DNA of 64,000 nucleotides from Shigella phage pSb-1: the sequence record KF620435. One strand, written 5' to 3'. How positions within the stretch are numbered: the first letter of the stretch is position 1; every line of letters begins with the position of its first letter. Shown one piece after another: positions 1,415-64,000 of the stretch. Under the pieces are notes generated by a model that was not told the origin of the DNA, did not search any database, and saw only the letters and a list, made by a program, of their open reading frames with translations. The translations under genes were made by a program, and so were the position numbers.

Positions 1415-1857
1415 TTAACGAGTTAGCTTATTAGCTGCAATGTAAGCATCAGCAGTAGACTGGTCACGGTTTTCTGCAACAGCACGACTACGAGCACGGT
1501 CTTCCAGTGCAGTGTTATAAGACTTAATCTGGTTGTTCAGGTTAGTGTTAGTAACACTCTTAGTAAAGTTCAACTGGTCTTTGGCTAACTTATTGGCTTG
1601 GAAACCACTGTAGATATTAGCTAATGAACCAAGTGCACCCAGTCCTAGTTGGAAGGTGGGTACGTTCATGCCCAACTGATTAGCTGAACCAGACAGGAAA
1701 GAAGTAGGGTAGATACCCCCAAATTCGTACCCATACCAATAGCTGCACCAGGGTTATAGTTCATAGCCGGGGTATTAAAGTTCTGATTGTTATTAGACAT
1801 CCAAGACATAGCAGCTGGCTGTGGGGTTTGGTTGCCTGTTAAGAATGACAAATCCAT
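1415..1857 (-). CDS. small virion protein, frameshifted (track fragments 1666..1878 and 1415..1675)
   Basis: ATG at 1857 with AGGAG RBS; the two fragments read as one protein if one C is restored in the C-run near 1716..1720. Confidence 0.35.
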
Positions 1858-1870
1858 GGGGATTCTCCTG

Positions 1871-2695
1871 TTAAACAAGGTCAGTATTAAGGGACATGTC
1901 AGAGTAGTTACCTATCATATCTAAAGACAGGTCAGCTATATCTGAGCCAGTCATGAGAGTACGTGATAAGAATGAATCCAGTGACTCCATTGACACGAAT
2001 TGCATTGGGTCAATTACACCCTGCCCAGCAGTACCAAACATTTCTTCATACTGCTTATTGATTGCCATCATATCAGTATTGTACTGCTGCATTACTCTCT
2101 CTGCTTTCTGAATAGTAGCAGCCGTAGATGCATTAATATACTGGCTAATACCATTACCTACCGAACTGGTAAGCTGCATGATGTTTTGGGCATTCATCAT
2201 TTCACTCGCTAAGGTAGACAGAGATGTACCAGTAGACAAAGCAGTACCAACATTCATAGCTACCATTGAAGCAATAGCAGCAATGATAAAGCCCAGCTTG
2301 TCCCCGAACAGTGACGTAGATACTTTAGTGATAATGGATACCAGAATCATTCCAGCAATGGCATTTGCTACAGCACCAACAATCACGGCAGCTAATCCAA
2401 CAAAACCCAGAGATGCACCAACTGCACCATATGCCCCAAGTATACCTGCACCACCAGCACCAGCTGTAAATACAGAGATAACTACAGCAACCACAACAAC
2501 AACAATCTTAAATGCCCCGGTCTGATACCATTTCTTCTTAACCTTCTTATATGAGTTCATCACTAAGTAGGAACAAGCAGTGGATAGCTGAGTACTTCGA
2601 ACCAGTGACATGGAACGGTAGATGTTAGTGTGCAGTGGAATAATGAATCCACTCTCCTCTGCATCACCCATTGCCCCGGCAACATCAATGTGCAC
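1871..2695 (-). CDS. Gly/Ala-rich multi-pass membrane protein (virion/ejection protein candidate); true start may be ATG at 2560
   Basis: Long hydrophobic runs (KIVVVVVAVVISVF, GILGAYGAVGASLGFVGLAAVIVGAV); track start is GTG; overlaps upstream ORF by 132 nt. Confidence 0.4.
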   Translation of the reverse strand: MHIDVAGAMGDAEESGFIIPLHTNIYRSMSLVRSTQLSTACSYLVMNSYKKVKKKWYQTGAFKIVVVVVAVVISVFTAGAGGAGILGAYGAVGASLGFVGLAAVIVGAVANAIAGMILVSIITKVSTSLFGDKLGFIIAAIASMVAMNVGTALSTGTSLSTLASEMMNAQNIMQLTSSVGNGISQYINASTAATIQKAERVMQQYNTDMMAINKQYEEMFGTAGQGVIDPMQFVSMESLDSFLSRTLMTGSDIADLSLDMIGNYSDMSLNTDLV

Positions 2696-4524: not shown

Positions 4525-4525
4525 A

Positions 4526-6130: not shown

Positions 6131-6144
6131 TTTATTTCGGACTA

Positions 6145-13044: not shown

Positions 13045-13671
13045 ATGTCTATTAAAGATATTTTCCAAAGTGGTAGGGATGTTGTATGCAAAATGAAGGG
13101 TGGTTTGTTGGTCGTGGGAAGTTATGGAGAACGAATAGTTTCTGCTAATAATATCTCAGAGCTTCCACCAGAACTGCTACCCATCCCACCAACAGAGTTA
13201 GAAGATACTTTCCTTCTGGACTTGTATACATGGACTGGGAACCAAGCAGTAAATGATCAGTCCTGGTTCAATTACTTTTCATTACCAGGGATAACTAAAT
13301 CACCCGGAGGTACAGCAGCCTTAACTATTGAAGAGGGTAATCTTAAGTTCCCTGTCAGAACCAGGAATACCCAAGTAATGTTCAGTGTTCGTATCTCGGG
13401 AACTATTGCAGGGGGTGCTGGTACAGCCAGGGAATGGAGAACACAAACAAGACGAATCAATGGAACTACAGTAGTAGGTTCAGACGCTAGTGTTAAAGTA
13501 CAAGGTACGGACATTGCTAACAGAGATAACGTACTAGCTACTTACACGCTTGGTTCAATGGACCCTTTCATGGTAGACGGTATTCAGTTGGGTATGCTTA
13601 ATATCTCAGGACAAGTGATCACCTTAACAGCAGTATCGGTTAGGGTAATGCAAACTGTAAACTCCATATAA
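13045..13671 (+). CDS. hypothetical protein on the opposite strand inside the late block (208 aa)
   Basis: ATG at 13045 with GAGGT RBS; own terminator at 13697..13717. Confidence 0.4.
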   Translation: MSIKDIFQSGRDVVCKMKGGLLVVGSYGERIVSANNISELPPELLPIPPTELEDTFLLDLYTWTGNQAVNDQSWFNYFSLPGITKSPGGTAALTIEEGNLKFPVRTRNTQVMFSVRISGTIAGGAGTAREWRTQTRRINGTTVVGSDASVKVQGTDIANRDNVLATYTLGSMDPFMVDGIQLGMLNISGQVITLTAVSVRVMQTVNSI

Positions 13672-13696
13672 AAAGTATTATTAATAAGTAAAAACT

Positions 13697-13717
13697 AACC
13701 CCGCCGAAGCGGGGTTT
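13697..13717. terminator. bidirectional hairpin terminator (CCCCGC-CGAA-GCGGGG + TTT)
   Basis: Perfect GC stem flanked by A-run and T-run, between converging genes. Confidence 0.6.
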
Positions 13718-13723
13718 CAAACA

Positions 13724-15267
13724 TCAATAAAGCACTTCCCATTTACCGTCTCCGGCTGAGAATAAGGTAACAAACTTACCTGCTTGTATCGTTTTTGCCG
13801 ATGATATATTTATGTTTCCACCAGGCTCTAGAATTAAAGTATTAGCGGTATCTGCTCGCAGCATAACTTTTCTCCCCCGTACATAAGCACCAGAGTTTTG
13901 TATGGTTATATTGTTTACGTCTGCCGCTCCGTTTATTTGAATTATATCTCCAGCTGAGGGTATGCTTAGGGTGGCGCCGGATGCTGACACTCGTGAGTCG
14001 TTCATTGGGTCCCATCGGGTTACGTTGTTAGCAATGATAACCCTTCTACTCTGTGTAAAAATATCATCGGTAATACCAACCGAATTGCAGTTGTTTCCGG
14101 TGACAACAACATCATAGCTATTAGGGTCAATTTGGATGGCGTACTTCTGACCGCCTCCACCACCTTTAAAGCTACCGTTAGAAACCACTATGCCTTTACT
14201 TAATCCGGTGAACGCATATCCACCAGTACCTTGTGGACCAATACTTCAGCTTGCAAATCAGCTGGCGATTTACCTTTTAGATTTCCATGAGATATGAAAC
14301 CGCTTAACGTGAACTCTTCACACGCATTAATTTCAAAGCCTAACCACCCATTAGAGTGCGATATATCACCATTTGAACTTGAACTACGGCAGTCCCCAAA
14401 ATCGAAACCAACACCAGTGTTGTTATACGACACATTGCCCGTCGACGTTATAAACGTGCCATTATAAAGCATTCCCTGGTGTGACGTTGTTGTGCCGTTG
14501 TTATAGCTTCTGTTGTTTGAAACTATTGAGTGAGACGTCTGGCAAACAATACCGTTTTGACCGTTGTTATGAGACTTGCACTCGGAGATCAATACCTGGT
14601 CAGCTACCGGTGTCGACGAGTTAGTGATGAACTGAATAGTAATTCCGTTTCCGCCGTTATCATGCGCATGAACTTTCGATATAGTGACTGGCGAGGTAGT
14701 AAACGTAGCGTTAGATAGCACAAGCCCGTCAGAATACGCGGATTGAATTTCGGTGTCCTTTATAGTTTCACCGCGAACATTTCTCAGGTAGATACCATAA
14801 CCAGAGCGAGTGCCGTCAACTAAACAGTTAGCTACCGTGTTACCACCGCCGACTGGGGTATCGCGTATTGTTATGCTGTGGCCTCCCGAAGCCTTTGATA
14901 CTACACGGTCCAGCACAACACCTGTGCGACCATTAATCATAATGTTATTGGCAGCTGAAGAACCGGACGTTCTTGTTCCATCTATAGTTACATTTACAAT
15001 CCTTACGGAGTTAGTATTGACTTGTATTAAGTCTTCAGTTGTATCACTTTTGCGAGAAATGAACCCAGGACCAAACACATCGCATGTAACACTGATGGTT
15101 GTTACTTTATATTCAATATTTGGATTTAGTTTTACAAAAAAACCATTTGTAGTCGCATAGTCTATTGCTGTCTGCAATACGTCCTGATCTGATAATGATG
15201 ACCGTCTAAAAATCTCAGGATCAACGCCTGACATAAAATAGAACCTTGGGATTATTTCACTTCGCAA
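13724..15267 (-). CDS. tailspike/tail fiber with beta-helix-like repeats, frameshifted (fragments 14200..15267 and 13724..14188)
   Basis: Repetitive Asn/Gly/Ser/Thr-rich sequence; downstream frame open from 14245 and continues the protein; one-base loss near 14225..14245. Confidence 0.5.
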
Positions 15268-15380
15268 TGAAGCATCACCAACACTAACCCACTTACCTAA
15301 CCCAGTACCCCCAGCACTTTCAGGAGTTGAACCGGAAGAAACGATTTTAGGTAACTCACCCTCCCAGCGATACTTACCTC

Positions 15381-15740
15381 CTATATGATAAGTAGTTCAT
15401 TTTTAGCATTAAGGGTAGCACCTGTATCAAATGATCCAGGTAATGTAACGTATTCTTCTCGAGATACGGCTAACTCCCCAAGGTCTACAGAACCAGCTGA
15501 ATGTACAAGTACAGCATTAGCACCAAGACTAACAGCAGTAGTACCTGGGGCAATACCAGCAGGTAGTGAATAGGATCTTTGCGTTTCTTTGTCATAAATG
15601 ACTTTATACCCACCTAAATCTACGCCAACTGAGAAGTAAACAACCTCAGACTGTTTAACACCAAACCTACGGGCAATGGCTTGTTTATTGGTAAGAATAC
15701 CAGTAGAGCCTTTACCACCTTGTGAGAACATTTCGTTCAT
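15381..15740 (-). CDS. hypothetical tail-module protein (119 aa)
   Basis: ORF in tail module. Confidence 0.3.
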
Positions 15741-16108: not shown

Positions 16109-18691
16109 ACCAACTTAGAATAGGGGATGAGTATGGGGAACCTGTAGCACTTGGAGTAGTAGTATAAGAGGGAGCCGATGCTCTTCCTTCCTGCAAAACA
16201 CCATCCCTGTATCTACGAATTGCCCCACCGATACCAAGTTTTACATCAAGATAATTACCAATAGTACATACTGATTGTGGAACACCTTTAGAAGAACCAT
16301 TCCAATAATTACTAATATCGATTTCTACAACATTATCCGAACCAGTGACATTAGCAAGTCGGTACTTCTGAGTCCTGAAACGACCACATAGCTTAACAAT
16401 AGCCCCGGTAGTACCCTTCACTACAGCAACATAGTTAGTATTATCAGTAGTATCATCGTAAGTACTAAGGTAGGCATCAACTACCCCACCATCAACGTTG
16501 ATGTATTCTACCGTAGCGTATTCTGCACCTAACGTACCTGTAACATTAGAATTGATAAATGTATAAGAAGCTAACGTAGCATGGTCTACAGCAGCCATAG
16601 CAAAGTTTGAGTAGTCTACGCCGTTCAAATAAAAACCAGAACCACCCGGTGAATTAGCGTAGTACCCATCAAACAGTAGACTGGTAGCGGATTGTGCATC
16701 TGCAATAGGTACTCCTTCAGCATTTGTACGTGTACCATCATAGAAGCAAGAGTGGGAAATAGTATCATTGCCACGAATGTCTTTGTGTGTTCCACGCCAT
16801 GCATTCTTACACCAGATATCATATAAACATCCACGGAAATTTATATTCTCTGTGCTGTAATTAGTAGCACTTGGGATGTAAATACCAACTGGACGGTCAC
16901 CAATGGGAGCCTCGTTACACCAAATATCTATGTTCTTAATTTGGAAGTAACGCACGGTCTCAGTGGCCATGAATACGCAGTTAATGTTAGCAGGAGCATA
17001 CCCACCAAAAACAGGTATTAAAGAAGTAATGCCTGATTTAGTGGATGTTCTTTTTGCTACACGACCCCCTGATAAATCAATTTTAAAGTGGGAACCTTAA
17101 GTAGTATGGGTGCATCAATCACAAATCTCTTACTTGAGTCTGCGGAAAAGATTCGGTTGAGGGAGTTAAACATTCTCTGGAATGCATCGGAAGAATCAGC
17201 AATACCTGTTGTGTCATCCCCGGTATAAGAGATTGCACCAAAATCTTCTACAGTAGCATTATTGGTATCTACCCGTTCCCAATACCAGTTTGAATTTACT
17301 GTCGCAATCACCCCACCATCATCGTCTGGTACTTCAGACATACCTGTAGTAGAACGAGCAATAAATTCACCACCACCAGTATCACTATTATCATAGTACC
17401 CAGACAAAAGGACACGTGCACCAGCTGAAGGTGGAACCAAAGTTCTTAGAGCAGCGAATGACTGCACACGTCCGATATTGGTAAAGCCAAGAGGAGAATT
17501 TAAACTATTTTCTAAAGTCTCCAAAGCAGACAACGCTTCACTAGGCATTGGCAATAGGTCAACTGTGATATTCCCTGGTGAGTAAGTTAACTGACCGTTG
17601 GATACAGAATTGATATAAACGTTAGTAGGTAGAGTAGGAAGACCATAAATCTTCTGCCCTACCACATCATATATGACCTTCATACCATTCAAATACTGAG
17701 TGGTATTCGTACTCAGAATAACATCATTCTCATGTACGTTAGCAGAACGAGCTACTTCCTGAACAGTACGGTCAGACATAATGAGCGTAGTGGATTCACC
17801 ACCAATCTGAATAATCAGACGGTCATTAGTAGCTAATGGCTCAGTTAATAGGATACGTTGGTTAGCAGCATCAACCGCATAAGACTTGTCTGCTAAACCT
17901 GCATAATAACGTTCGCCATTCTTATAGATAGCCGGTACAGATTCAAATGTGTAAGGAATAGCAATTACTTGCTCACCACCTGAAGCATACCCACCGTTGT
18001 ACAACCAGTTGATCTGAACCCAGTCAGATACATTAGGATTATCAGGAACTGCTGGAGTACCAGTCAGGAACAGGTGTACTTCATCACCTGGTTCTAATGG
18101 TTGAGCCAGAGTAACGGTTAGTGTAGATGCATCGTAAGTAAAACCATAGCCAACTAAGTTGGTATAGCCATCAATTACAATCATCGGTACACCAACCGTA
18201 CCAGCAGGCACTGGGATAGTGGTTTCACCACCGATAGCAGAACCATTATTATATGAGTATGGAATGTATGGAGGTGATGCTTTACCTTCGCCGTCATCTC
18301 CACCACTATCTGAATTAGAAGTGGCAACCAGAATCCAGGAACCAGTAGCGGAAGGGTCATCTGGAATTACACCTGTACGGTCACCTTCTACATACAGATA
18401 ATCTGTAACAACTCTTTTATTGGTATTGTCAAAACCATACAGTCGTACATAAGATGCACTGGTAGGTATGGCCTTCAGTTCAGTTTCTGATTGAACACCT
18501 AACACCATTCCATATTTATTTAAGAAATCATAAATGAGTTTGAGGTTACCTAGGTTGCAGTACACAGTACGAACCACATGGTAAGCATTACCAAGTAATG
18601 CATCTACCATTGGGTCATTGGAACTGTTCTGGCAGTAAGGATTGGTCCAATCCTGCTTTGCATCAAAGGGGGTATGTGCGTTCATCGCCAT
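16101..18691 (-). CDS. large tail protein (~860 aa), frameshifted (fragments 17057..18691 and 16101..16970)
   Basis: Second fragment's frame is open upstream to ~17096 and overlaps the first fragment's end; restoring one base near 17081..17088 joins them. Confidence 0.45.
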
Positions 18692-19391
18692 CCTCGTTGT
18701 TCAAATTTAGTTTCGGTAATTGAAATACTTCCATTAGCCAGGTCGTAATCAACAACCTCACCACAGATGCTTTCATACGTTTGCAGATACTCTGCTGCCT
18801 TAGCGTTAGCTTCAGGAGTATTCAAACCAGTATGGTAACGATAACCCACCCAGTTATGAAGTGCTGTCATTAGCGTGTCTGCTAAGTCAACTTCCTGTTC
18901 TTCATCACCCGTAAGTACAGGTGCTTAGCTTGATAAGTTACGTTAAGTGCCTCGAAGTGTCGAGGTCGCATACACTGAATAGTATCAGGCCGTGGAGTGA
19001 AGATAGCATGAGGGTCTGAATCGTCGTTCAGTCTACGTCGATTCCCTGAGTTATCAAACACATTTAAGATTTTAATAACATCATCCCGGAAAGGTTTCAT
19101 GAACCCATCCATGATATATGGATATTGAATCTCAAGTGTGGGCTTAGTAAATCTGGAGTAGGCATACTTAGATTGAAGAGGATAATCAGTACGACCTTCC
19201 TTCATTTCCACAATACAACTATTAGTTCTAAGGGGGAAACGACTATGTAATCGTACCAGCCCCTCATTAATAGCAGCTAGTATCTCAGGCTTACTATCTG
19301 GTTCAATATCTAATCTGTCATCAGTGACTGCACCAGTACCTTTCAAGGTACTTAGTGCCAAGCCACGATATACTTCCGATAATTTTTGCAT
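18682..19391 (-). CDS. tail/virion protein (~230 aa), frameshifted (fragments 18882..19391 and 18682..18870)
   Basis: Downstream frame open across the upstream stop; GGG-to-GGGG restoration at plus 18908..18910 joins the frames. Confidence 0.4.
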
Positions 19392-22130: not shown

Positions 22131-22329
22131 TTAGTCATGCCGCCTAGTAGACAGTGGCGGTACTCGTAAAGAGTTAATAACTTCTACAGTCAGGGTTGCC
22201 CGGCTCCTTTCCTACCTAGTAGGCTAACGATACACATGTATCTAGGGTGATGAACTGACCCGTGATTGAAAACGGTAAGGGTAGAGTCGAGAGGCTCTAC
22301 CCCATTTCTTTTTCAGGAGGTATGCAAAA

Positions 22330-23332: not shown

Positions 23333-23667
23333 ATAGAGTACTATACCCCCATCAATATAAGGATGAAGTCTCTGTTTACTCCGAGAATGTCAATAAAGCT
23401 ATTGATTGGTTACTCCCACAAGACTGTCATATGCTTATGCTACCTGGTGAGTTAGCAGATAGTACCCGTGGTTCCATCCTTCTTCTCAATAGTCCAGCTA
23501 AGTTAACCATCATTAACCCAGGGGAATCCATAAAGATACCTGCTGGTGAATCTGCATTCTTGTTCTTTGAACCAAGGATAGAAGAAGGGTTCGATGGGCT
23601 TACTATGGATAGTAGACCCAATAAAGATTTTAAAAGAGTAAGGATTATATCTCATGAAACTTACTAA
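23320..23667 (+). CDS. early protein, paralog family member 5
   Basis: Motif LPGELADSTRGSILLLN. Confidence 0.4.
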   Translation: MCPMNRVLYPHQYKDEVSVYSENVNKAIDWLLPQDCHMLMLPGELADSTRGSILLLNSPAKLTIINPGESIKIPAGESAFLFFEPRIEEGFDGLTMDSRPNKDFKRVRIISHETY

Positions 23668-23980
23668 GATAGGTTATGCTGGTGGTCCTAATCCCACCAG
23701 ACACACAACCTTACAAAACCTTCTTGGAAGGCTCACTCCTATTATCCTTGTACCGGATGAGCAAACACTTCACGAAGTTAAGGGGTTAGCTCTAATATTA
23801 GGCAAAAAGGTTATTGTAAAAGTACAAGAACCAGGAAAAGAATTACCATGGCCTTCCTCCTTATACTCCCCGTGGCATGTGAATACGGATAAGTACACTC
23901 TTACCTTCACCACTAGTGATACTTTCCAATCACCACATTTGGTATATGCTCCCTCCTATTTAACTACTTATAAGGATTAA
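23654..23980 (+). CDS. early protein, paralog family member 6
   Basis: Motif LVPDEQTLHEVKGLALILGK. Confidence 0.45.
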   Translation: MKLTKIGYAGGPNPTRHTTLQNLLGRLTPIILVPDEQTLHEVKGLALILGKKVIVKVQEPGKELPWPSSLYSPWHVNTDKYTLTFTTSDTFQSPHLVYAPSYLTTYKD

Positions 23981-23981
23981 C

Positions 23982-24116
23982 ATGTGGTATGTAATAGTTA
24001 AGGGCTTACCTGAACCAGTGATAGTACACAGCCTGGCTTTCGTAGAAGTGGGTAGACCATTACTTGTAAATGGTAAGCTGTATGAGGTTTTAAGTATCAA
24101 ACGCTATGATGAATAA
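23982..24116 (+). CDS. small hypothetical protein (44 aa)
   Basis: ATG with AAGGA RBS; followed by hairpin and T-run. Confidence 0.25.
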   Translation: MWYVIVKGLPEPVIVHSLAFVEVGRPLLVNGKLYEVLSIKRYDE

Positions 24117-24342
24117 GAGATAAATAGGAGGTAGATAGATACCTCCTCATAATATTTTTGCATGTCAAAATTGTGATAGCTATGTATGGCTACAGTGGTG
24201 TGGCTGGGGCTACACCCTTACACTCAACCATCCCCCCCGGTATGTTGACGGTGTAGCCACTACCCTACCCCACCTTACACGTTACACATGCTCCGCATGT
24301 TATGGACATGTTGTCCTATCATCAACTATTGGAGCTATCATC

Positions 24343-24510
24343 ATGACTACTCAAGCTACTGTACGTATGACCGCAGGAACTTTACTTGGTACTGTTAACT
24401 CAGCTGCTACTACTGTTGCAGATACATTCGGTACAGCAACTAAAGCAGTAGGTATGCTTAATTCATATGTAAGTACTATGCAGAGAAACAAGCCATTCGT
24501 ACTAAATTAG
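24343..24510 (+). CDS. small Ala/Thr-rich protein (55 aa), below the track size cutoff
   Basis: ATG 24343 with GGAG RBS; frame checked codon by codon to TAG 24508..24510. Confidence 0.3.
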   Translation: MTTQATVRMTAGTLLGTVNSAATTVADTFGTATKAVGMLNSYVSTMQRNKPFVLN

Positions 24511-24672
24511 AAATGCATACATTCGTTAATAAACTGGCAGAGGAAACAGCTATGACTGAGACTCTGCGTAAGAAAAGTATTGAGGAATTCTGCAAGGATT
24601 CAGAAAACGCTCGTATCTATAACGCAGAATATTCCAAAGTAATTGACATCCTGACTAAAGACTAAGTCACCT

Positions 24673-24699
24673 AGGAGACTCTTCGGAGTCTCCTGTTTT
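24673..24699 (+). terminator. rho-independent terminator
   Basis: AGGAGACTC-TTCG-GAGTCTCCT followed by GTTTT. Confidence 0.6.
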
Positions 24700-24953
24700 G
24701 AACATTAGATAGTTCAACTATTCCGCATAAAAAGTTAAAAGAGATTCCTACTATGAGCAAACTAGAAAACGCATTTATCTTAACTGTTTGTGTACTTGCA
24801 TTGGTTACTTTGGTTTCCGTTCACATTGGAAAACCTCTGGTAAACACTGACTATGGTAATGGTCAAAAAGTAAAATCCATCCTGCTATCAGATAAGTAAA
24901 AACTAAGCTGTTCCACAGCTTACGGATACATTTCAACCAATTAGGAGACATCC

Positions 24954-25169
24954 ATGAACGTAGAGAATATCCGTATGATTGAGGATTGCTTTAGCAATAA
25001 ACCTGTAGACCTAAGCAATGCAAAAAGGTCTACAGATAAAGAGTATGGAGAGTTTCTATCATTACTCGATGAATACCGTATGCAAGGACATGTTGAATTA
25101 CATGCCTATCTGCATAACTCAGGCTACTTCATGGATAAACTGGAAACTGAAACAGGCTGTCCATTCTGA
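24954..25169 (+). CDS. hypothetical early protein (71 aa)
   Basis: ORF with upstream AGGAGA. Confidence 0.35.
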   Translation: MNVENIRMIEDCFSNKPVDLSNAKRSTDKEYGEFLSLLDEYRMQGHVELHAYLHNSGYFMDKLETETGCPF

Positions 25170-25297
25170 AAACCAAGACGCTCCGCGTCTTATGGATGAT
25201 GTAAATGCATCCACTAATCATTGAACTTTTATCCTTTTGTTTGGGTGTTCTCACCGACGAGTTCACCCGTAAATCACATAAATCTGGAGAGTACAAA

Positions 25298-35671: not shown

Positions 35672-36845
35672 ATGAACCAATTTCCTCAGCACACACTTAG
35701 TGATGAACAACTCATGCGTGAGTACGACCGTATTCAGGCTAAGGCGTTTCTTGGACGCAGTGCAGCGTTCTTTGGTTCATTACTGTGTAGTCTTAAGTTC
35801 TCATGGAATCGTGAGAATTGTCCCACTGCATGTACTGATGGGATAGAACTCCATTTCAACCCAGACTTCTTTATCTGGATGTGTCCAGATGCAAGAGAAA
35901 CAGTGTTAATGCACGAACTCTGGCATGTGGCATATCTACATGACATCCGTCGTGGAAGCCGTGACCCAGAAGTCTGGAACCAGGCATGTGACCACTTCAT
36001 TAACCTTCAGTTAGAAGAAGATGGTTACAAGTTCACTGGCATTGATAAAGGCATTTGCAAAGACCCTCAATATAAAGGATGGGTCGAAGAAGACATCTAC
36101 GATGACCTGATGAAGAACCTCAGAAAAGGCAGAAGCCGTCTGGGGGTGCTGGAGCTGGTCTTGCTGGCGACATGAAATCCCCACTTCGGGGCAGTCCCAG
36201 GGTGCTGTTGTCAACAACGTAGTACGTGCAATGCAGAGCCAGAAGATGGCTGGTGGACAGATGCCCGGTAAAGGTGCTGGTCGTATGGAAGAGGTTATTA
36301 CCCAATTCCTTAAACCAGTGGTTCCATGGCAGGAAGTTCTGATGAACTTCTTTACCGACATTGATGACACTCACTATACGTGGGCCAGGCCTAACCGTCG
36401 TTACACTGACATTTATCTACCTTCCCTGGAAGATGATGAAGGACGCTTACGACACTTAGCTTATTTTGAGGATGTATCTGGTTCTATTAGTAGTGCTGAT
36501 TCTCTGCGTTTTAACTCAGAGGTTGCCTATGTTAAGAGCCAGTTCAATCCTAAGAAGATGTCCCTAATTACCTTCGACGATGTTATCCAGGAAGAGATAG
36601 ACATCACTGAAGAAGATACTTTTGAAGAGATTAAGATTACAGGTCGTGGTGGTACAAGCCTTGTGCCTGTACGAGATTGGATTATTAAGAATAAGCCAAC
36701 CGCTGCAATCATATTCTCCGATATGTATGTTCGTCCAATGGAAGAATTGCCATTTGATATCCCCATCATCTGGTGTGTTCTGAATAATCCCAATGCTACC
36801 GTACCTTTTGGGGAGGTAGTTCATATCCCTAAAGGAATGAAATAA
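35672..36845 (+). CDS. metallopeptidase (HExxH) - von Willebrand A domain protein, frameshifted twice (~36142..36146 and ~36178..36182)
   Basis: HELWHVAYLH zinc-binding motif; C-terminal vWA-like region; three frames link through a G-run and a C-run in a Gly-rich linker. Confidence 0.5.
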
Positions 36846-38851: not shown

Positions 38852-39768
38852 TGATTAAGGCATCAGTTATTGCAGATTCCGTTCATCCAGAAACAGGAAC
38901 TCGTATCACAACCTTTGAATTGGTTTATCCCCGATTCATTCACAGTGAGTTTATGACACACCGTGTATTCAACCGCAATGCTTCAAGCAGTCGTGCTATC
39001 CCCACTGCTAAGTTCATCGAACAGGTTCGTAATGAGCCAGTGATGCCAAGTCACTGGGGCAAGAACCAGAAAGGCATGCAGGCATTTGAAGAACTATTAG
39101 AAGACCAACGCAGTGATGCAATTTTTATCTGGGAACAGGCTGCATCCAGTGTTGCTACCTATGCAGAAATGCTGCGTCGTGGGCAAGTGCATAAGCAGAT
39201 TGTTAACCGCATTCTGGAACCATTCACACATATTCGTGTAGTAGTAACCTCAACTAGCTGGGCTAATTTCTATGGACTGCGTGACCACAAAGATGCACAA
39301 CCAGAGATTCGTGAACTGGCTCAGGCAATGCGTAAGGCACATGAAGAAAGTACACCGAGAGCATTACCATATGGGCAATGGCATCTACCGTATATTGCCC
39401 ATATTGATCGTGTTGGGGCTTACAATTTCTGCAAACGCAATCGAGTTACACGCGATGAACCAAGTGATGCAGAAGTACATGGACTACTTCTCAAAGTAAG
39501 TGCTGCACGCTGTGCACGTGCTTCTTATAACAATTTTGAAGGACGTCCATCCACTATTGAAGAAGACCTTGGCTTATTCGCTAAATTAGTGGAAAACCAA
39601 CCTATTCATGCTTCTCCAACGGAACATCAAGCTACACCTATGAACCTTGGTGAAAAGTACGTTAATAACATGAACCAGTTACCTGGGAACAAGGTGTTAC
39701 ATCCATGGATAAAGAAGGAAATCTGTACTCAGGTAACCTGCTTCATTTTATCCAATTCCGTAAATTAA
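38851..39768 (+). CDS. thyX: FAD-dependent thymidylate synthase ThyX-like
   Basis: THRVFNRNASSSR fits the ThyX RHR-x7-S-x-R signature; C-terminal ~25 residues may be out of frame. Confidence 0.55.
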   Translation: MIKASVIADSVHPETGTRITTFELVYPRFIHSEFMTHRVFNRNASSSRAIPTAKFIEQVRNEPVMPSHWGKNQKGMQAFEELLEDQRSDAIFIWEQAASSVATYAEMLRRGQVHKQIVNRILEPFTHIRVVVTSTSWANFYGLRDHKDAQPEIRELAQAMRKAHEESTPRALPYGQWHLPYIAHIDRVGAYNFCKRNRVTRDEPSDAEVHGLLLKVSAARCARASYNNFEGRPSTIEEDLGLFAKLVENQPIHASPTEHQATPMNLGEKYVNNMNQLPGNKVLHPWIKKEICTQVTCFILSNSVN

Positions 39769-40059: not shown

Positions 40060-40086
40060 GTTTCAATTACTGTCCCAGGAGGACTT

Positions 40087-45551: not shown

Positions 45552-45923
45552 ATGTCTAAAGTATTCAGAAGTAATCGCAAAGCAACTGATGAAGACATCA
45601 TTCGTATGAATGCTGTTGGTCTGTCCCTCGCAACTATCGCTAAGACGTTGGGGGTTCACCCCACTACGGTTACTTTGCGATTGCGTTCTCTAAATATTGA
45701 ACCAGCCGACACACGTCGGACGTTCATGGAAAACGTATTACGTCCTTTACCAACCCATGTGGCTGATTGGCTATCAGAACAAGTTGGCCCTAAGTATGAG
45801 ATTCGCTCATATGTAAGGGACTTGATTCTGGAGGCATATAATAATCGCCACCTTAACCAAGAGAGTGAGCATGACAAGTTCATCCGTTTGTACGCTGGAA
45901 AGAACCGGGATGAATTGGGGTGA
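45552..45923 (+). CDS. small DNA-binding protein candidate (123 aa)
   Basis: HTH-like segment AVGLSLATIAKTLGVHPTTVTLRLR. Confidence 0.3.
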   Translation: MSKVFRSNRKATDEDIIRMNAVGLSLATIAKTLGVHPTTVTLRLRSLNIEPADTRRTFMENVLRPLPTHVADWLSEQVGPKYEIRSYVRDLILEAYNNRHLNQESEHDKFIRLYAGKNRDELG

Positions 45924-46389
45924 CATATTTACTTATCGGAACGGTAAATTGTACTGGAAGGTAAAAGCAGCGGCGCATACCGTAGTTGGCTCGGAAGCCG
46001 GGTGCTATGACAAATCCTCCGGGTATGTTCTAGTACGCTACAAACGAAGACTACGGAGAGCACACTGCATAATATGGGAAATGCACAATGGTCCTATACC
46101 TAAAGGTATGCTCATTGACCATCTAGATAGGGTAAGGACCAATAATCACATTGGAAACCTTCGCTTAGGTGGTCAAGACCTCAACCAAAAGAATCGTAGT
46201 AAACAATTTAATAACTCTTCCGGAATAACAGGTATTTCCTGGGATAAGGAAAGAAGTAAGTGGAATGCTAAGATTCAGGTGGAGGGCAAAACTATTAATC
46301 TAGGTCGCTTTACGGACTTAGATGAAGCTGCCAGAGTCCGCTATCAAGCAGAAAAAGACTATGGCTTCACTCCAACACACGGGAAATAA
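45910..46389 (+). CDS. free-standing HNH homing endonuclease with AP2-like domain
   Basis: HCIIWEMHNGPIPKGMLIDHLDRVRTNNHIGNLRLG; C-terminal GISWDKERSKWNAKIQVEGKTINLGRF. Confidence 0.65.
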   Translation: MNWGDIFTYRNGKLYWKVKAAAHTVVGSEAGCYDKSSGYVLVRYKRRLRRAHCIIWEMHNGPIPKGMLIDHLDRVRTNNHIGNLRLGGQDLNQKNRSKQFNNSSGITGISWDKERSKWNAKIQVEGKTINLGRFTDLDEAARVRYQAEKDYGFTPTHGK

Positions 46390-46868: not shown

Positions 46869-48177
46869 ATGTTTTCCAAACCTACCAAAGCCCCACTGAA
46901 CAAGGGGCAAGAAGCGGTTGCGAAGGAGTTCTTCGACTTCCTGCTCGACCCTAATGCTACCGAATTCAATATTAGTGGCCCAGGGGGAACTGGCAAGACA
47001 TTCCTGATGTCGCACCTCATTGATGACACTATGCCTGCATATATGGAAACTTGCTCCCTTATGGGAACCAAGCCTCTGTATAACGAAGTGTTATGACTGC
47101 GACCACGAACAAGGCTGCTGAAGTTCTGGCTCAGGCTACTGGACGCCCAACGTCTACCTATCACTCCTTCCAGGGCTGATTGTTAAGAATGACTTTAAAA
47201 CTGGTGAGGCTAATGTCGTACCTTCTAAGTCATTCAATATTAAGAAGAACAAAATCATCTTCGTAGATGAAGCATCCATGATTGACCGTCAGTTACTTAA
47301 GTATGCTCGTGAAGGTACTCACCAGTGCAAACTGGTATTCGTAGGTGATGCTTCTCAGCTTCTGCCTGTTAAAGAGAATAAGTCTCCAGTGTATGCAGGC
47401 AATATCCCAACACACTATCTGACTGAACAGATGCGTACCGATGCACCGGAACTTAAAGCATTGCACCAGCAATTGCGTGATACGGTAGAAGGTAAGACAG
47501 GCTTCCTGCCTATTAAATGTATTCCAGGCATCATTGACTGGGTACAAGGAGAAGAGATGGAGAAACTGGTTCTCAGTCACTTCACTCAACCTACCAACAG
47601 CCGTATTGTTGCTTACACGAATGATCAGGTTATTAATTACAATAACTACATTCGTGAAGCTAATGGCTACGTGGGCGAGTACTCCATTGGTGAACAGTTA
47701 GTATCTAACTCTGCTGTTCGCTTGGGTGTGGAAGACCGTCTGTCTATTGAACAAGACGTAAAACTCATTGACCAGGATAGTAGTACTCGCATGATTCCAG
47801 TTACAGGTGATCTGGAACTAGAAGTTCGTGATAGTACTCTGGACCTTGGTTATGGTGGTATTGTAAGTGAAGTTCCAGTACCTACTGACCCAGAATACTT
47901 CAACCGTTTGGTTAAGTGGCTAGGTAAAGAGAAGAACTGGGAACCTTACTTCCGTCTTAAAGAAACCATCCCAGACCTACGTGCTACTCATGCATGTACT
48001 GTCCATAAATCGCAAGGCTCTACTTACGACACAATCTTCATTGATGCAGATGACCTCTCAAGCTGTCGCCAACCAGATATGGTTGCTCGTCTGCTTTACG
48101 TCGCTGTGTCTCGTGCCCGTAAGCGAGTAGTGTTCTATGGCAATCTTGCCAGTAAGTACGGTGGTCTAACTTTCTAA
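46869..48177 (+). CDS. Dda/RecD-like SF1 DNA helicase, frameshifted twice (~47084..47096 and ~47170..47179)
   Basis: Walker A GPGGTGKTF (frame 1), TATTNKAAEVL...TYHSFQG (frame 2), IIFVDEASMI Walker B and TVHKSQGSTYD (frame 3). Confidence 0.7.
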
Positions 48178-51307: not shown

Positions 51308-51609
51308 CCAAAAGTACTAAAGAAACTGTAGTCAAAAAATATCATTGGATGGTAGCAGCACAAGTAGTATTCCAGCTTCCTAAAGTGGATGATGGTTCCC
51401 TGCTTACCATGAACACGATGTTGCTCACTGATGAACCTTATGTGACCTATAAAGATTTGGCCCGTGCCAATCATTCCTTGAAGATTAGTCTGGACCAGCG
51501 TTTCGATACCTCAGTTGACTTGAAAGACATTGTTTACCTGTCCCTCAGCAACCTGGGTCTGATGTCTGAACCAGAGTTCCAGGCAAACATGATTCCTAAG
51601 GATAAATAA
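51304..51609 (+). CDS. hypothetical protein (101 aa)
   Basis: ORF overlapping pol stop. Confidence 0.3.
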   Translation: MTKSTKETVVKKYHWMVAAQVVFQLPKVDDGSLLTMNTMLLTDEPYVTYKDLARANHSLKISLDQRFDTSVDLKDIVYLSLSNLGLMSEPEFQANMIPKDK

Positions 51610-51628
51610 TGCTAAGCTCTCCGGTGGA

Positions 51629-51892
51629 TTGAATAACTGGTATGTAGTACCAGTTAAGCACCCTCAACGGAAAGAGCAAGAGCCATATCAAGCAGAGTGT
51701 GAAGATATTATACAAGCACTAGGCATGACCTTCGATGAAGGTTGTGCCTTTAAAGCTCTGTGGCGAAATGCTGCTGCCCGTATGGGTAATGGTAAACCTG
51801 GAAACTCTTCGGTGTACGACTCAGAGAAGATTGTGCACTATGCCAATCGCATATTGAAAAAGGCTTATAATGAAGATAACCAACAATCATGA
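51629..51892 (+). CDS. hypothetical protein (87 aa)
   Basis: ORF. Confidence 0.3.
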   Translation: MNNWYVVPVKHPQRKEQEPYQAECEDIIQALGMTFDEGCAFKALWRNAAARMGNGKPGNSSVYDSEKIVHYANRILKKAYNEDNQQS

Positions 51893-52742
51893 TGTCTCAC
51901 TGGCTCTGGCTGTATGGCTATTGCATGACGAATATGACTATGTAGATAACCCTAAGTACCTGTCTGTTACTACATTGCTTAAGCCCATTAAGCAAATCGT
52001 CATGAAGCATCGTGTAGATTTAAGTGACCAGTCAATTGATGTTATGGATTTCGTCTCCACATCAATGGGTACTGGTTTACATGATTCTATCGAGAAAGCC
52101 TGGAAGCTAGGTCATAAGACTGCATTGAAGAAGTTGGGGTATCCTCAACGAGTAATTGATGCAGTAGTCATTAACCCAACCGAAGCAGACTTTGATACTA
52201 ACCCTGACCTTATCCCAATCTACATTGAACAGCGTGGAACCAGGATAGTTAAGGGTTGGACTATCGGTGGTAAGTTCGACATCGTAACAGAAGGTCTGCT
52301 GCAGGACTTTAAGTCTACCTCCACCTATTCCTGGGTTGCTGGTTCCCGTGATGATGAACACAAGATGCAAGGTAGCTTGTACCGTTGGATTCACAACGAC
52401 ATCATTACTGAGGATGTAATTCGTATTAACTACATCTTCACTGACTTCATGAAGCATATGGCTAATAGCAATCCGAACTATCCTGCTAATCGTATTATGC
52501 ATAAGGATATTCCGTTGCTATCTATCGAGAAGACTGAACGTTGGGTAGAAGAGAAGATTCACCTCATTGAGAAGTACTGGAATGCACCTGAAGAGAAAAT
52601 TCCTGAATGTACTGACGAGGAGTTGTGGCGAACAGAGCCACAGTTCAAGTACTTCTCTGATGCTTCTAAGGTAGATGTACCTGGAGCCAGAAGTACCAAA
52701 AACTTTGATGATATGGCATCTGCTCGTATCTTCATGGACTGA
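51870..52742 (+). CDS. PD-(D/E)xK-type nuclease candidate (290 aa)
   Basis: GGKFDIVTEGLLQDFKS resembles the D...(D/E)xK core; position in replication module. Confidence 0.35.
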   Translation: MKITNNHDVSLALAVWLLHDEYDYVDNPKYLSVTTLLKPIKQIVMKHRVDLSDQSIDVMDFVSTSMGTGLHDSIEKAWKLGHKTALKKLGYPQRVIDAVVINPTEADFDTNPDLIPIYIEQRGTRIVKGWTIGGKFDIVTEGLLQDFKSTSTYSWVAGSRDDEHKMQGSLYRWIHNDIITEDVIRINYIFTDFMKHMANSNPNYPANRIMHKDIPLLSIEKTERWVEEKIHLIEKYWNAPEEKIPECTDEELWRTEPQFKYFSDASKVDVPGARSTKNFDDMASARIFMD

Positions 52743-55849: not shown

Positions 55850-56646
55850 ATGTCATTGTTCAGTAATCTGAAAGAAAAAACCAAAAACGTTGAAGCTGTT
55901 AAAGACTCCCTGGGTGGTGGTGGCTTCGGTGCAAAAGAATCCGATATCTACACCGGTACTGTAAAAGTAGCTTACGTAGGTAAAGCTGACTCTGGTGCAG
56001 ACTGGATGCAGTTAATCATTGAAGACCTGAAAAACTCAGATGGCGTACCTGCCGGTGAGTTCCGTGCTCAGGTGTACTTCACTTCTGGTAATGCTAAAGG
56101 CAATAAGCGACTTACGAGAAGAACGGTAAAGAGTACTTCCTGCCTGGCTACACTGTCATTAATGACATGATGCTGATGGCTACTGGTTGTGAACTGCCAG
56201 ATGCAGACTTCGAAGAGAAGATCGTTAAAGTCTACGACTTCGATGCTAAAGCAGAAGTTAATAAATCCGTCATGGTTCCAGTTGATCTGGTTGGTCAGAC
56301 TGTTACCTTCGCTCTGGAAAAAGTTCTGGAATCCAAGCAGGTTAAGGGTGACAACGGCTACGTTGACTCTGGTGAAACTCGTGAAGTAAACGAGATTCAG
56401 AAAGTGTTTCACCCGGAACTGCTGGTCACAGTCGTCGAGGCTCAGGAAGCAGAGAAGGCTGAGAAAGAACTGACCCCAGAACTGGCTGTATTCTACGCAG
56501 CATGGCTGGAAAAGAACAAAGGTAAAACCCGTGATAAGACCAAGGGTTCTGCTGGTGGTAATGGTAAAGGTGGCTTGCCTCCTAAACCAGGTGCTGGCAC
56601 GAGTACTACTCCTGCTGGTGGTAAATCACTGTTCGGTAAACGTTAA
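55850..56646 (+). CDS. single-stranded DNA-binding protein candidate (N4 gp45-like), frameshifted near 56103..56106
   Basis: Fragments 55850..56170 and 56167..56646 join if AA becomes AAA at ~56103; Gly-rich C-terminal tail. Confidence 0.4.
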
Positions 56647-58291: not shown

Positions 58292-58450
58292 AGGCTTCAG
58301 ATCCCTTATCAACTAACGCTCATGTTGAGCACAACATTAACTAATAATGTCGGATAGTTCATTACGCTATTCATTCAGCATCGAGATGTTAGGTCTTACA
58401 TGTAATATAGGGTATAAAGGGAGGATTCGTCCCCTCCTCCTATTATAATG

Positions 58451-59100: not shown

Positions 59101-59185
59101 GCCCACTTAGCTCAATGGTAGAGCGCAGGAAAGCTTCGAGAGAACAAGGTGTCTGTGGTCACTGGTTCGAATCCAGTAGTGGGTA
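59101..59185 (+). tRNA. tRNA-like element 3 (type II length); anticodon arm not foldable by eye
   Basis: Acceptor GCCCACT/AGTGGGT, D-arm GCTC-AATGGTA-GAGC, T-arm ACTGG-TTCGAAT-CCAGT; 35-nt middle with no canonical 5-bp stem. Confidence 0.4.
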
Positions 59186-60140: not shown

Positions 60141-60164
60141 GCCCCTCTAATGAGGGGCTTTTTC
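60141..60164. terminator. bidirectional terminator between converging genes
   Basis: GCCCCTC-TAAT-GAGGGGC followed by TTTTTC. Confidence 0.55.
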
Positions 60165-60192
60165 ATTTAGTTAGTGAGGTTGAGCCACGGGT

Positions 60193-63100: not shown

Positions 63101-63879
63101 TCAATGTTGTTAGCACCCATGATGGTATCGAACCTCTGCTGTGCATAATAACGGTCAGCAGGGTTAGTACTATCTGGGTCAGACATGAACGCTTCAACAG
63201 TCAGGTTCTTAGTAACATGTGTGTAGTATTCCTGTGCACGAGCCAAAGCAGCTGGATTAATAGCAGCCTCGGTAGCCAGTGCAGCAACAATATTAGTGAA
63301 GAGACGTTGTTCCTGCATATTCATAGTGAAACCATGAGCCTGAACATCACGAGTTACTTTAGTTGCATTCACTACTGCATCAGAGAACTTACCTTTACGA
63401 ATTACTTGCTGTACTGGCTCTGAACCAATGTAGTCAGTAATCAGCTTATCGAAGGTCTTACCTAGCTCTTCCAGACGGGTATTGTCACCGTATGCTTTGT
63501 TATGGAACAGAGTAGTGTCTTTGGCTACAGCAGCAGTAGGAGCTTGTCCACGCATAACTACAGCAGAGTTAAACAGTAAGCCAGAGAACATATCATCTGC
63601 ATTAGCAGGAGCTTTCTTACGTCCAAATATCAGACGTTTGATTGCTTCATATACAGCCTGAACCATAGTTTTAAGTGCAGTGGTTTTCTTCTGCTTACTA
63701 ATAAGTTCACGGTTAGTTAAGCCCCAAGCCATGTACTCATTCAGTGCAGCAGCTTTAGCCATTGCTGGTTCAATGAAGCCATTAGACAAGTGACCATTAA
63801 TGGTATTCAGTGCATCAGCATATGCTTCACGTACTGCCGGAGATTCATCCTTAACATCCAGAGAACGGAACTGGTTCAT
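60193..63879 (-). CDS. giant virion protein (1228 aa); probably the C-terminal region of the virion-encapsidated RNA polymerase (N4 gp50 position)
   Basis: Last minus-strand gene, convergent with end of early block as in N4; frame is open 14 codons upstream of its ATG and overlaps the end of an upstream ORF. Confidence 0.4.
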   Translation of the reverse strand: MNQFRSLDVKDESPAVREAYADALNTINGHLSNGFIEPAMAKAAALNEYMAWGLTNRELISKQKKTTALKTMVQAVYEAIKRLIFGRKKAPANADDMFSGLLFNSAVVMRGQAPTAAVAKDTTLFHNKAYGDNTRLEELGKTFDKLITDYIGSEPVQQVIRKGKFSDAVVNATKVTRDVQAHGFTMNMQEQRLFTNIVAALATEAAINPAALARAQEYYTHVTKNLTVEAFMSDPDSTNPADRYYAQQRFDTIMGANNIEFDAQGRSSLLPTFVGLAMVSEEVRKVLADIPVMKADKKSGNTVDAMLTNIGTAAMASLNARVAGDTKATNVQEGMDALAQTIMQTSLNAESFYDSVATPTGNAIDRANQYLVDSIDVLSTRALEGAREVAANTKNPLVKGAAHAAQLIAAIATEKNGSIVAEGVMAAMNQGKVWQPFHDLVNDIIGRTKSNASVYDLIKAVRAQVQADRQQFREHLPTTIASKFSRKLTNEEWKAMHTGMGKTDLAVLRDTMSLAEIRDLLTDQKIVDREVNKLEADLQKQAGRNWPLISRKSKQLAQYMINGTVGNNLLRNATAISRLLGERKTTRSTVDVAQLDKLITLYALEAMNKTDREMLSSLAQTEIEGMDFATSYLVGQRKDEMAKAKSDSRATLNQYKGYIPGENKQGVNLIVAEDSQFADLIEKSYVRLGTYQGSSANRGPARSYYFAPVQAQAPFSQGILQNVRNTAGGVDLGTGFTMGTMVAGRITDKPSVDRITKALARGERGNEPLLPVYDANGNVVAYEQSIDPNMLKHIEGENHLARAIGVWRGRQVEEAKAQRFNDMLIENLYSMYENDIKMSASNKSQYVNLLGSKLDPVTADALKLMNSETRQKAESLFGPGELWVRRDMLNDALGYRAASVGDAWSGNSRWSPETLDTFKKAMLGVFGNRAYKYVMGGENLVQNLVKEAKTLIVVKSVIVPAVNFLANLYQMVARGVPVKNIAKSIPQKTAEINQYLKSRLRQVDAEAELRAATNPNQIRKLKAEIQSITDSHKRLSIWPLLEAGEFSSIADAGIGRDDILITEGKLHEYMDKLADKLPKSVRNAGRYALFTKDTALFQGIQKTVEYSDFIAKAIIYDELTQRKGKTREEALGRVTEEFINYDRLPGRFRGYMESVGLMWFYNFKIRSAKVAVSMIRNNPVHAAMAMLAPTPTMFGNVGLPIQDNIFSIAAQATSVTHSVSDKAYVPIP

Positions 63880-64000
63880 CAGGTCTTCAATATTCTGAAC
63901 GGCTTCATTAGGAGTGCTTCATAATGAGCCAGTACAGATTCAAAGGTAGAAGCATGTACCAATTCATGAACCAGAGTCTCTAAGGAAGGGGTAACTAAGT
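63879..64000 (-). CDS. 3' end of an upstream minus-strand ORF (partial); either separate virion gene or upstream part of vRNAP
   Basis: Frame open from window edge to TGA at 63881..63879, overlapping the ATG of the 1228-aa ORF (TGATG). Confidence 0.3.
   Translation of the reverse strand, partial: LVTPSLETLVHELVHASTFESVLAHYEALLMKPFRILKT

Follow-up and report, generated by a model that had tools for sequence, protein, structure and literature searches.

Several apparently essential genes of the Shigella phage pSb-1 (sequence record KF620435) appear as two or three adjoining ORFs in the 64,000-nt stretch analysed here (the window). An original prediction, made from this stretch alone, listed such splits as single-base, −1 frame breaks at homopolymers and ascribed them to sequencing or assembly error. 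We asked how many such breaks the window holds, and whether they belong to the phage or to its deposited sequence.

Census of small indels in the window

The window carries the N4-like genes in collinear order, among them that of the giant virion RNAP (vRNAP), with ~95% nucleotide identity to members of Gamaleyavirus, and on this basis is placed in that group (G7C/N4-like, Schitoviridae). The closest DNA matches of large megablast queries were ~95–96% identical, with ~95% identity to St11Ph5, HK2, ZQ2 and PW8. The relatives used for comparison were St11Ph5 (NC_070873), G7C (NC_015933), EC1-UPM (NC_041906), HK2 (PP514361) and PW8 (PQ362703); for the tail genes, HK2 or the IMG/VR contig L008 served as additional references. 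The Gamaleyavirus relatives share with the window a gene order that runs from gp51 to gp69 and then across the early genes as far as vRNAP, at 93–96% nucleotide identity and typically 95–100% amino acid identity in restored frames. The window differs from them by a ~220-nt deletion in gp41, and by a tailspike receptor-binding module for which L008 is the sole close DNA match. An odd tRNA-like gene has an identical form in HK2, which rules it out as an indel casualty.

As the original prediction had proposed, proteins of close N4-like genomes were compared with the window by tblastn. Frame switches were found in 17 genes, with 95–100% amino acid identity on either side. In total, 24 small indels are found only in the window (22 deletions of one base, one of two bases, and a single-base insertion). 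Of these, 22 are coding and are spread over the 17 genes, including terL, vRNAP, RNAP1/2, helicase, SSB, ThyX, exonuclease, tailspike and gp66; the other two are intergenic. The events are listed below.

Minus-strand genes:
1707..1709, minus strand: gp52 break; GGG against GGGG in St11Ph5, a 1-nt deletion; repaired, 147/147 aa
2713..2714, minus strand: gp53 break; CC against CCC in relatives, ACC(C)TG; repaired, 884/884 aa
7887..7888, minus strand: gp57 break; CC against CCC in relatives, ACC(C)TGG; repaired, 406/406 aa
14229..14230, minus strand: tailspike (gp63.1) break 2; CC against CCC in the reference, ACC(C)TT
15378..15390 (~15386), minus strand: tailspike (gp63.1) break 1; net −1 frame change against a divergent reference, base not placed
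16114..16114, minus strand: gp66 break 2; C against CCC in HK2, a 2-nt deletion, AAC(CC)TT
17095..17096, minus strand: gp66 break 1; CC against CCC in HK2, ACC(C)TT
18920..18921, minus strand: gp67 break; GG against GGG in relatives; repaired, 236/236 aa
20686..20687, minus strand: terL (gp68) break; base absent after CCCAG; repaired, 529/529 aa
60246..60247, minus strand: vRNAP (gp50) break near the C-terminus; base absent, GCC(C/T)TG
63915..63917, minus strand: vRNAP (gp50) break; GT-GC against GTACC in relatives, base absent

Plus-strand genes:
24480..24480 (site 24479), plus strand: gp1 break; G absent, ATG(G)CAG; repaired, 107/107 aa
25409..25409, plus strand: gp2 (RNAP1 subunit A) break; G absent, GAAG(G)CTC; repaired, 157/157 aa
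31286..31287, plus strand: gp16 (RNAP2) break; GG against GGG (or GGA) in relatives; repaired, 405/405 aa
36118..36119 (site 36117), plus strand: gp25 (vWA) break 1; CC against CCC in relatives, ACC(C)TC
36179..36182 (site 36178), plus strand: gp25 (vWA) break 2; CCCC against CCCCC in relatives
39675..39676 (site 39674), plus strand: gp30 (ThyX) break near the C-terminus; CC against CCC in relatives; repaired, 314/314 aa
47089..47089, plus strand: gp37 helicase break 1; T against TT in relatives, the sole A/T-type deletion
47173..47175, plus strand: gp37 helicase break 2; GGG then C, one base longer in relatives (GGGG or GGGA)
51611..51611 (site 51610), plus strand: gp41 break at codon 2; G absent, ATG(G)CT
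52738..52738, plus strand: gp42 exonuclease; extra A between G and C, CATGG(A)CTG, the sole insertion
56108..56108 (site 56107), plus strand: gp45 SSB break; C absent, AAG(C)CGA

Intergenic sites:
22279..22281 (site 22278), no strand: deletion in a terminator-like hairpin; GGG against GGGG in relatives
58436..58437 (site 58435), no strand: deletion; CC against CCC in St11/G7C/PW8

With 22 small edits, all 17 genes became single ORFs of reference length, as expected from the claim that restoring one base yields continuous proteins. For genes with two breaks, repair of both sites gave 391/391 aa for gp25, 436/436 aa for gp37 and 1277/1277 aa for the C-terminal part of vRNAP. Repaired gp66 has 967 aa, against 965 in HK2, and repaired SSB has 265 aa against 267, a gap accounted for by a separate in-frame 6-nt difference. 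In the exonuclease, the extra A makes a TGA that removes 36 aa, and deleting it gave 326/326 aa. A tblastn search with the HK2 tail fibre placed the first tailspike frame switch at 15384/15378; one inserted base there links three pieces into 672 aa, and L008 carries an intact 639-aa homolog. In the genes that are hit twice (gp25, gp37, gp50, gp63.1 and gp66), both hits have one sign, and neither compensates the other. In the intergenic hairpin, the complementary arm keeps CCCC, leaving one unpaired C in an otherwise perfect stem.

All indels are singletons, absent from 3–5 independent relatives whose genes are intact (20 sites were checked against 3–4 genomes, and four tail-gene sites against HK2 or L008 only). 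The base missing from terL is G in St11/HK2 and A in G7C/EC1/PW8. A 3001:3001 alignment over the terL region had made PW8 a candidate sharer of this deletion, which was rejected because its terL proved to be intact (1590 nt) and PW8 carries the extra base at each of the 20 sites covered. Exact DNA patterns over the terL site, with or without the missing base, had no match in IMG/VR or the JGI metagenomes, and identical sequences were likewise not found for the portal, DNAP and MCP proteins. Sites 40068 and 15770 were dropped as deletions, since at least one relative (G7C and/or EC1) matches the window there; on this comparison, these differences are natural polymorphisms.

The original prediction was borne out at each of its 12 sites, which lay 0–27 nt from where it had placed them (the first gp25 site is at 36117, instead of ~36144). 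Relatives are one base longer at these sites and the downstream part lies in the −1 frame, as supported by 3–4 independent intact relatives per site, or by one for the tailspike and gp66 sites. The split genes are real features of the record, but the 12 sites fall in 10 genes rather than in the twelve that it counted. It missed 12 further events, namely those in gp53, gp57, gp1, ThyX, gp41 and the exonuclease, both in vRNAP, gp66 at 16114, the tailspike at ~15386, and the two at 22278 and 58435. Its uniform −1 direction holds for most events and is slightly overstated, the exceptions being the +1 insertion at 52738 and the 2-nt deletion at 16114.

The split of gp24 was also considered as a frameshift, and was rejected. 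This gene is divided by an 868-nt intron-like insert carrying an HNH gene, rather than by an indel. Exon 1 ends in U and the intron in G, the predicted spliced junction restores D-L-S-G-L-P, and the ORF within the insert is of the HNH/NUMOD4 type. The insert matches Rfam RF00028 at 26.8 bits (E = 1.6e-4), under the gathering score of 50. Among the Gamaleyavirus relatives compared, only PW8 shares it. The interruption is predicted to be a true biological group I intron with an HNH gene.

Spectrum and placement of the indels

The indels are strongly biased in direction (23 deletions against one insertion), length and base. All 22 placeable deletions (~15386 was left out) fall in reference runs of at least 2 nt (p = 2e-8), although relatives differ in the restored base in several length-2 cases, and the run assignment is partly a judgement. 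The homopolymer context noted originally is therefore beyond chance, and can be stated more sharply: 21 of the 22 lost a C/G base (p = 2e-7), from C/G runs of 2–5 nt. The deletion rate per run climbs with length, from 0.15% for runs of 2 to 1.7% for 3, 2.4% for 4 and 4.3% for 5. Among runs of at least 3 nt, 10 of 301 C/G runs were shortened against 0 of 712 A/T runs, with only ~27 conserved-flank runs of at least 5 nt comparable. Sequence context also mattered: deletions hit 7 of 121 ACCCT sites compared with 4 of 574 C3 runs elsewhere (p = 7e-4), and each of the six CC to C events lies in a GCC context. Three events fall outside this signature: the loss of T at 47089, the extra A at 52738 and the unplaced event at ~15386. 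Random in-silico corruption of the sequence was rejected as a source, since uniform deletions would not yield 21/22 C/G or the ACCCT/GCC specificity.

Event positions are uniform along the window (KS p = 0.94), and the coding share (22/24) is close to the coding fraction of 91.6%, indicating that the events are blind to selection. Downstream of the breaks, the restored frames contain 0 stops in 3466 codons and have a pN/pS of 0.046, compared with 0.069 upstream of the breaks and 0.072 for genes without a break. Purifying selection on the restored frame has not weakened past the breaks.

Singleton status, repairs, selection, uniform placement, and the base and k-mer spectrum together support the error reading of the original prediction. 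We consider it very probable (about 0.93) that the indels are sequencing or consensus errors in the deposited sequence of an intact, functional-looking phage genome, rather than biology. The real phage almost certainly encodes full-length proteins. We infer this origin from sequence comparison, rather than from reads, quality values or metadata. In nearly all cases a short C/G run would have been read one base too short (as in CC to C or CCC to CC), with a preference for ACCCT/AGGGT and GCC/GGC contexts, and each undercount would shift the frame by −1, causing ORF finders to give 17 genes as two to three fragments. The cause would lie in sequencing or polishing, most plausibly in a long-read (nanopore-type) assembly that lacked short-read or homology polishing. 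The window is a circularly permuted contig that spans the physical genome ends and holds the terminal-repeat region in a single copy, consistent with a raw de novo assembly. Error-free long A/T runs are atypical of older nanopore, 454 and Ion Torrent data, and the few long A/T runs of the window are error-free, which counts against a ready platform assignment.

Alternative origins of the breaks

The deletions might instead be real, the genome being a defective, decaying or mutator-derived, non-viable one with truly broken essential genes. The breaks are present in the sequence as given, and slippage at short G/C runs is a genuine mutational mode. However, general decay would be expected to bring stops and nonsynonymous changes. 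In the window, 22 events break the frames of 17 genes, terL, vRNAP, RNAP1/2, helicase and SSB among them, yet not one nonsense substitution was found in the broken genes, and pN/pS past the breaks is not above that of intact genes. Nor does the window show the varied indel size and sign of pseudogenes: the indels are almost all −1, and none of the frame-breaking ones exceeds 2 nt (the gp41 deletion being a separate difference). Every event is, moreover, a singleton against 4–5 relatives. Lytic N4-like phages are not known to have a dormant state in which such a broken genome could persist. We regard real decay as very improbable.

Slightly less probable still is a variant of the error reading, in which sequence-specific modification of phage or host DNA interfered with base calling at ACCCT/AGGGT-like and GCC-like motifs. 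In its favour are the strong k-mer specificity and the known clustering of systematic nanopore errors at modified motifs (PMC8011154). Dcm methylation was unconvincing as the driver: three events overlap CCWGG sites, but these are 3 of 24 events on 146 such sites. Errors occur at only ~6% of ACCCT sites and also in several other contexts, and the genes with matches in annotated relatives included no methyltransferase or hypermodification gene. Simple undercalling of C/G runs would suffice (PMC8486125). If modification were the cause, the errors would be the footprint of an epigenetic motif, from a previously undescribed DNA modification of this Gamaleyavirus phage or one imposed by its host.

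Pervasive recoding of real frameshifts, whether by programmed −1 ribosomal frameshifting or by slippage of transcription at the runs, appears effectively refuted already: all but two events require the same −1 shift and both frames are open (trivially) around each site, but none of the sites carries an X_XXY_YYZ slippery heptamer, the sense strand has no common motif (G runs at some sites, C runs at others), the runs of 1–4 nt fall far short of what RNA polymerase slippage would require, the relatives are unbroken at every site, one event would need +1 and another −2, and two further like events are intergenic.

Consequences for annotation and comparison with known systems

These errors matter for practice rather than for biology. 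Read as it stands, the ORF track contains ~40 spurious fragment 'genes' and hides full-length terL, vRNAP, RNAP2, helicase, SSB, tailspike and gp66. If left uncorrected, the fragments would distort annotation, domain calls and the clustering of proteins, as well as searches for 'novel small genes' or 'split genes'. The caution that fragment ORFs should not be read as gene boundaries was sound, as relatives are intact and the fragments merge on repair; they should be merged accordingly. The 24 coordinates, with the repair rule of adding one C/G to the run, give corrected proteins that can be used downstream.

Among known systems, programmed −1 frameshifting, as in phage tail assembly chaperones, likewise places the downstream part of a protein in the −1 frame. 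The window differs from it in having neither heptamer nor conservation, 22 coding sites rather than one, and breaks in essential enzymes.

Nanopore or long-read-only assemblies (Homopolish, PMC8011154; survey, PMC8486125) resemble the window in that deletions far outnumber insertions and C/G homopolymers of at least 3 nt are read worse than A/T (both PMC8486125), and in that errors depend on the k-mer. Residual systematic errors in such assemblies are homopolymer indels that frameshift genes, and can be corrected from close homologs; Racon-level polishing leaves ~1 deletion per 2.8 kb (PMC8011154), a rate like the ~1 error per 2.7 kb of the window, both being about 1 per 2–3 kb. In contrast to these assemblies, the errors of the window are almost confined to C/G runs of 2–5 nt, with none in the longest A/T runs.

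Phage genomes provide a further parallel. In long-read-only phage assemblies of the HYPPA study (PMC10438801), a double frameshift left the DNAP of phage Toyotomi in three pieces, an essential gene divided by single-base errors as in the window, and these assemblies also included a permuted contig with a collapsed terminal repeat. That study concerned T7-like phages, whereas the window belongs to a ~72-kb N4-like genome with a far heavier load, spread over 17 genes.

Indels peculiar to the window

A megablast search against the phage collection placed the window with the G7C-like, N4-like coliphages (genus Gamaleyavirus, Schitoviridae). Most of it is ~94–96% identical to St11Ph5, HK2, ZQ2, PD205, EC1-UPM and PW8, and the search returned no closer record. 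The minus-strand portion starts inside gp51 and carries the structural genes up to gp69, the plus-strand portion extends over early and replication genes as far as gp47, and the virion RNA polymerase is cut off by the window end within its C-terminal third. The point at which the reference records start and end (window ~23650–25175) is crossed without interruption, and the terminal-repeat region annotated in G7C is present in one copy, indicating that the contig is circularly permuted with a collapsed direct terminal repeat. Such a layout is expected of a de novo assembly that is circularly permuted.

The window was aligned with three complete genomes, St11Ph5 (NC_070873), G7C (NC_015933) and EC1-UPM (NC_041906), and every gap was listed. 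HK2 (PP514361) served as an additional reference for gp66, a contig from IMG/VR whose 639-aa homolog is intact served for the tailspike, and PW8 (PQ362703) was a fourth whole genome. All St11Ph5 proteins were compared with the window by tblastn, and each site was viewed in local alignment. Small indels found only in the window numbered 24. Of these, 22 delete one base, one deletes two (16114), and one inserts a single base (52738). Two are intergenic (22278 and 58435), and the 22 coding events break 17 genes. The tail-gene sites 14230, ~15386, 16114 and 17096 were each compared with one intact reference. Candidates at 40068 and 15770 were rejected as ordinary polymorphisms, at least one relative being identical there.

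In silico repair consisted of 20 one-base insertions, one dinucleotide insertion and the removal of A52738, after which each broken gene formed a single ORF of reference length, with 2-aa exceptions in gp66 and SSB.

Broken genes, number of events, and length after repair against the reference (gp41, with one event, is described below)
gp1, one event: 107 aa; reference 107 aa
gp2 (RNAP1-A), one: 157 aa; reference 157 aa
gp16 (RNAP2), one: 405 aa; reference 405 aa
gp25, two: 391 aa; reference 391 aa
gp30 (ThyX), one: 314 aa; reference 314 aa
gp37 (helicase), two: 436 aa; reference 436 aa
gp42 (exonuclease), one: 326 aa; reference 326 aa
gp45 (SSB), one: 265 aa; reference 267 aa
gp50 (vRNAP), C-terminal part, two: 1277 aa; reference 1277 aa
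gp52, one: 147 aa; reference 147 aa
gp53, one: 884 aa; reference 884 aa
gp57, one: 406 aa; reference 406 aa
gp63.1 (tailspike), three pieces joined, two: 672 aa; without a full-length reference
gp66, two: 967 aa; reference 965 aa
gp67, one: 236 aa; reference 236 aa
terL, one: 529 aa; reference 529 aa

All twelve sites of the original prediction proved real in the genome alignments, tblastn and local inspection, lying 0–27 nt from where it had placed them; it counted twelve genes, and its sites occupy ten. The uniform direction that it described nearly holds, the two-base deletion at 16114 and the insertion at 52738 being the exceptions. Its warning against trusting the boundaries of the fragment ORFs was right, and applies equally to a further seven genes. 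Its attribution of the breaks to sequencing or assembly error is supported by four independent lines, namely selection, placement, the composition of the damage and a hairpin, and we consider the breaks to be very probably artefacts (probability about 0.93).

Probable mobile-element loci and other features

Several further features were observed in the window.

Loci described in this section
33944–34811: 868-nt insert that, rather than a small indel, splits gp24 (ATPase, 33744–35664)
33960–34607: ORF in the gp24 insert, a homing endonuclease with NUMOD4, HNH_3 and AP2
29871–30485: 204-aa ORF between gp15 and gp16
45865–46389: 174-aa ORF between gp35 and gp36, with an HNH_3 domain
51608–51892: gp41
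59101–59185: tRNA-like gene
13255–15577: 2.3-kb tailspike module

The boundaries of the gp24 insert are group I-like, with U at the end of exon 1 and G at the end of the insert. The predicted spliced junction gives D-L-S-G-L-P, matching St11Ph5 gp24, and the first 177 nt of exon 2 contain no start codon of their own. The Rfam group I intron model (RF00028) matched the insert below threshold (26.8 bits, E = 1.6e-4). PW8 contains the same insert (98.7% identity), annotated ATPase / HNH / ATPase, and it is absent in St11Ph5, G7C and EC1-UPM. The two free-standing ORFs would be typical mobile homing-endonuclease cargo, variable among relatives; the 204-aa ORF had no Pfam match, and G7C carries an HNH endonuclease at its position.

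In addition to a frameshift in codon 2, gp41 is missing its C-terminal ~70 aa. About 220 nt of St11Ph5 (27547–27768) are absent between window 51852 and 51870, which may be a true loss or a fault of assembly; G7C and EC1-UPM have HNH endonuclease genes at this junction. The tRNA-like gene matched Rfam RF00005 (54 bits), was not detected by ARAGORN, and has an anticodon-loop region of 24 nt, compared with 11 in the model. HK2 has the same extended form (98% over 201 nt); at the homologous position, ECBP1 and Bp4 carry a normal tRNA-Ile. The gene may be either a disrupted tRNA or a tRNA with a mini-insert.

GATC occurs at 35 sites in the whole window, compared with 201 ± 12 expected from dinucleotide-preserving shuffles (~six-fold depletion), and 7 of the 35 lie inside the tailspike module. 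No DNA homology links the module to other Gamaleyaviruses; it matches an unrelated IMG/VR contig at 88% identity. Together, the GATC cluster and the foreign match suggest that this receptor-binding module was recently acquired horizontally. The public PW8 record (PQ362703.1) also seems to have flaws: in place of gp66 it shows a misc_feature of 2135 nt, 'similar to hypothetical protein', and its Sak4-like gp44 is shortened and followed by an HNH gene. It was deposited as circular.

Selection on the restored frames

pN/pS was calculated from codons mapped via the St11Ph5 alignment, reading post-break segments in the restored frame, with each indel mended. The value was 0.046 downstream of breaks (3466 codons, 0 stops), 0.069 upstream, and 0.072 in 21 unbroken genes. 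Synonymous divergence from St11Ph5 is ~0.2, and the restored frames were therefore fully constrained by purifying selection during essentially all of that divergence. The breaks are not real unless they arose extremely recently. The low downstream pN/pS and the absence of stops contradict a genome in true decay; moreover, no niche is known in which a dead lytic phage could persist. Comparison of St11Ph5 proteins (tblastn) and codons revealed no nonsense substitutions in any gene.

The events are uniformly distributed along the window (KS p = 0.94), and their coding share (22/24, 91.7%) compares with a window coding fraction of 91.6%. They are unfiltered by selection despite striking terL, vRNAP, RNAP2, the helicase and SSB. 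Paired events inside one gene share the same sign, and thus do not compensate each other. At one intergenic deletion (22279–22281), a hairpin has GGG on one arm and CCCC on the complementary arm, where relatives have GGGG and CCCC. Several observations contradict programmed −1 frameshifting or transcriptional slippage: no site inspected has a slippery heptamer, the runs are short, the sense-strand base is mixed, the same kind of event is found in intergenic DNA, and the frame is intact in all relatives. Judged from homolog comparison, the breaks are very probably a textbook example of consensus indels left uncorrected when a phage genome was assembled, and no biological feature.

Error spectrum and comparison with sequencing platforms

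C or G was lost in 21 of 22 placeable deletions (window G+C 42.6%, p = 2e-7), and all 22 lie at reference runs of at least 2 nt (p = 2e-8). The per-run deletion rate was 0.15% for 2 nt, 1.7% for 3 nt, 2.4% for 4 nt and 4.3% for 5 nt. Among runs of at least 3 nt with strictly conserved flanks, 10/301 C/G runs were shortened versus 0/712 A/T runs, including none of all comparable A/T runs of 5–7 nt. The homopolymer context originally proposed was thus right but too general, C/G runs being specifically affected. ACCCT was affected in 7/121 cases versus 4/574 for the remaining C3 runs (odds ratio 8.75, p = 7e-4); by next base, C-runs of at least 3 nt were affected in 12/277 (T), 3/451 (A) and 0/132 (G) cases, and all six CC-to-C events occurred in GCC. 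Miscalling driven by a DNA-modification motif is a possible but unlikely cause and is not needed as an explanation, with neither a modification gene among the genes matched to annotated relatives nor a convincing motif in its support. Three events fall outside the C/G-run signature (T deletion at 47089, A insertion at 52738, and ~15386, where the exact base is not placeable), and may have a separate origin.

In classic flow-chemistry errors, the longest runs fail first, whichever the base. The window differs in that short C/G runs are affected and A/T runs of 5–7 nt spared. For a comparison of rates, we take the P. aeruginosa genome in a published polishing study to be about 6.8 Mb. After Racon-level polishing, 2417 deletions, 538 insertions and 622 mismatches remained in it (PMC8011154), which under this assumption is roughly one deletion per 2.8 kb; the window has one event per 2.7 kb. 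In nanopore data, C and G homopolymers >2 nt are read significantly less well than those of A/T, with deletions predominating (PMC8486125). The systematic errors that remain are mostly indels in homopolymers, which shift gene frames (PMC8011154), and genes split by double frameshifts are known from long-read-only phage assemblies (PMC10438801). This behavior agrees with the C/G-run deletions and gene frameshifts of the window, a spectrum that points, with moderate confidence, to a nanopore-type platform.
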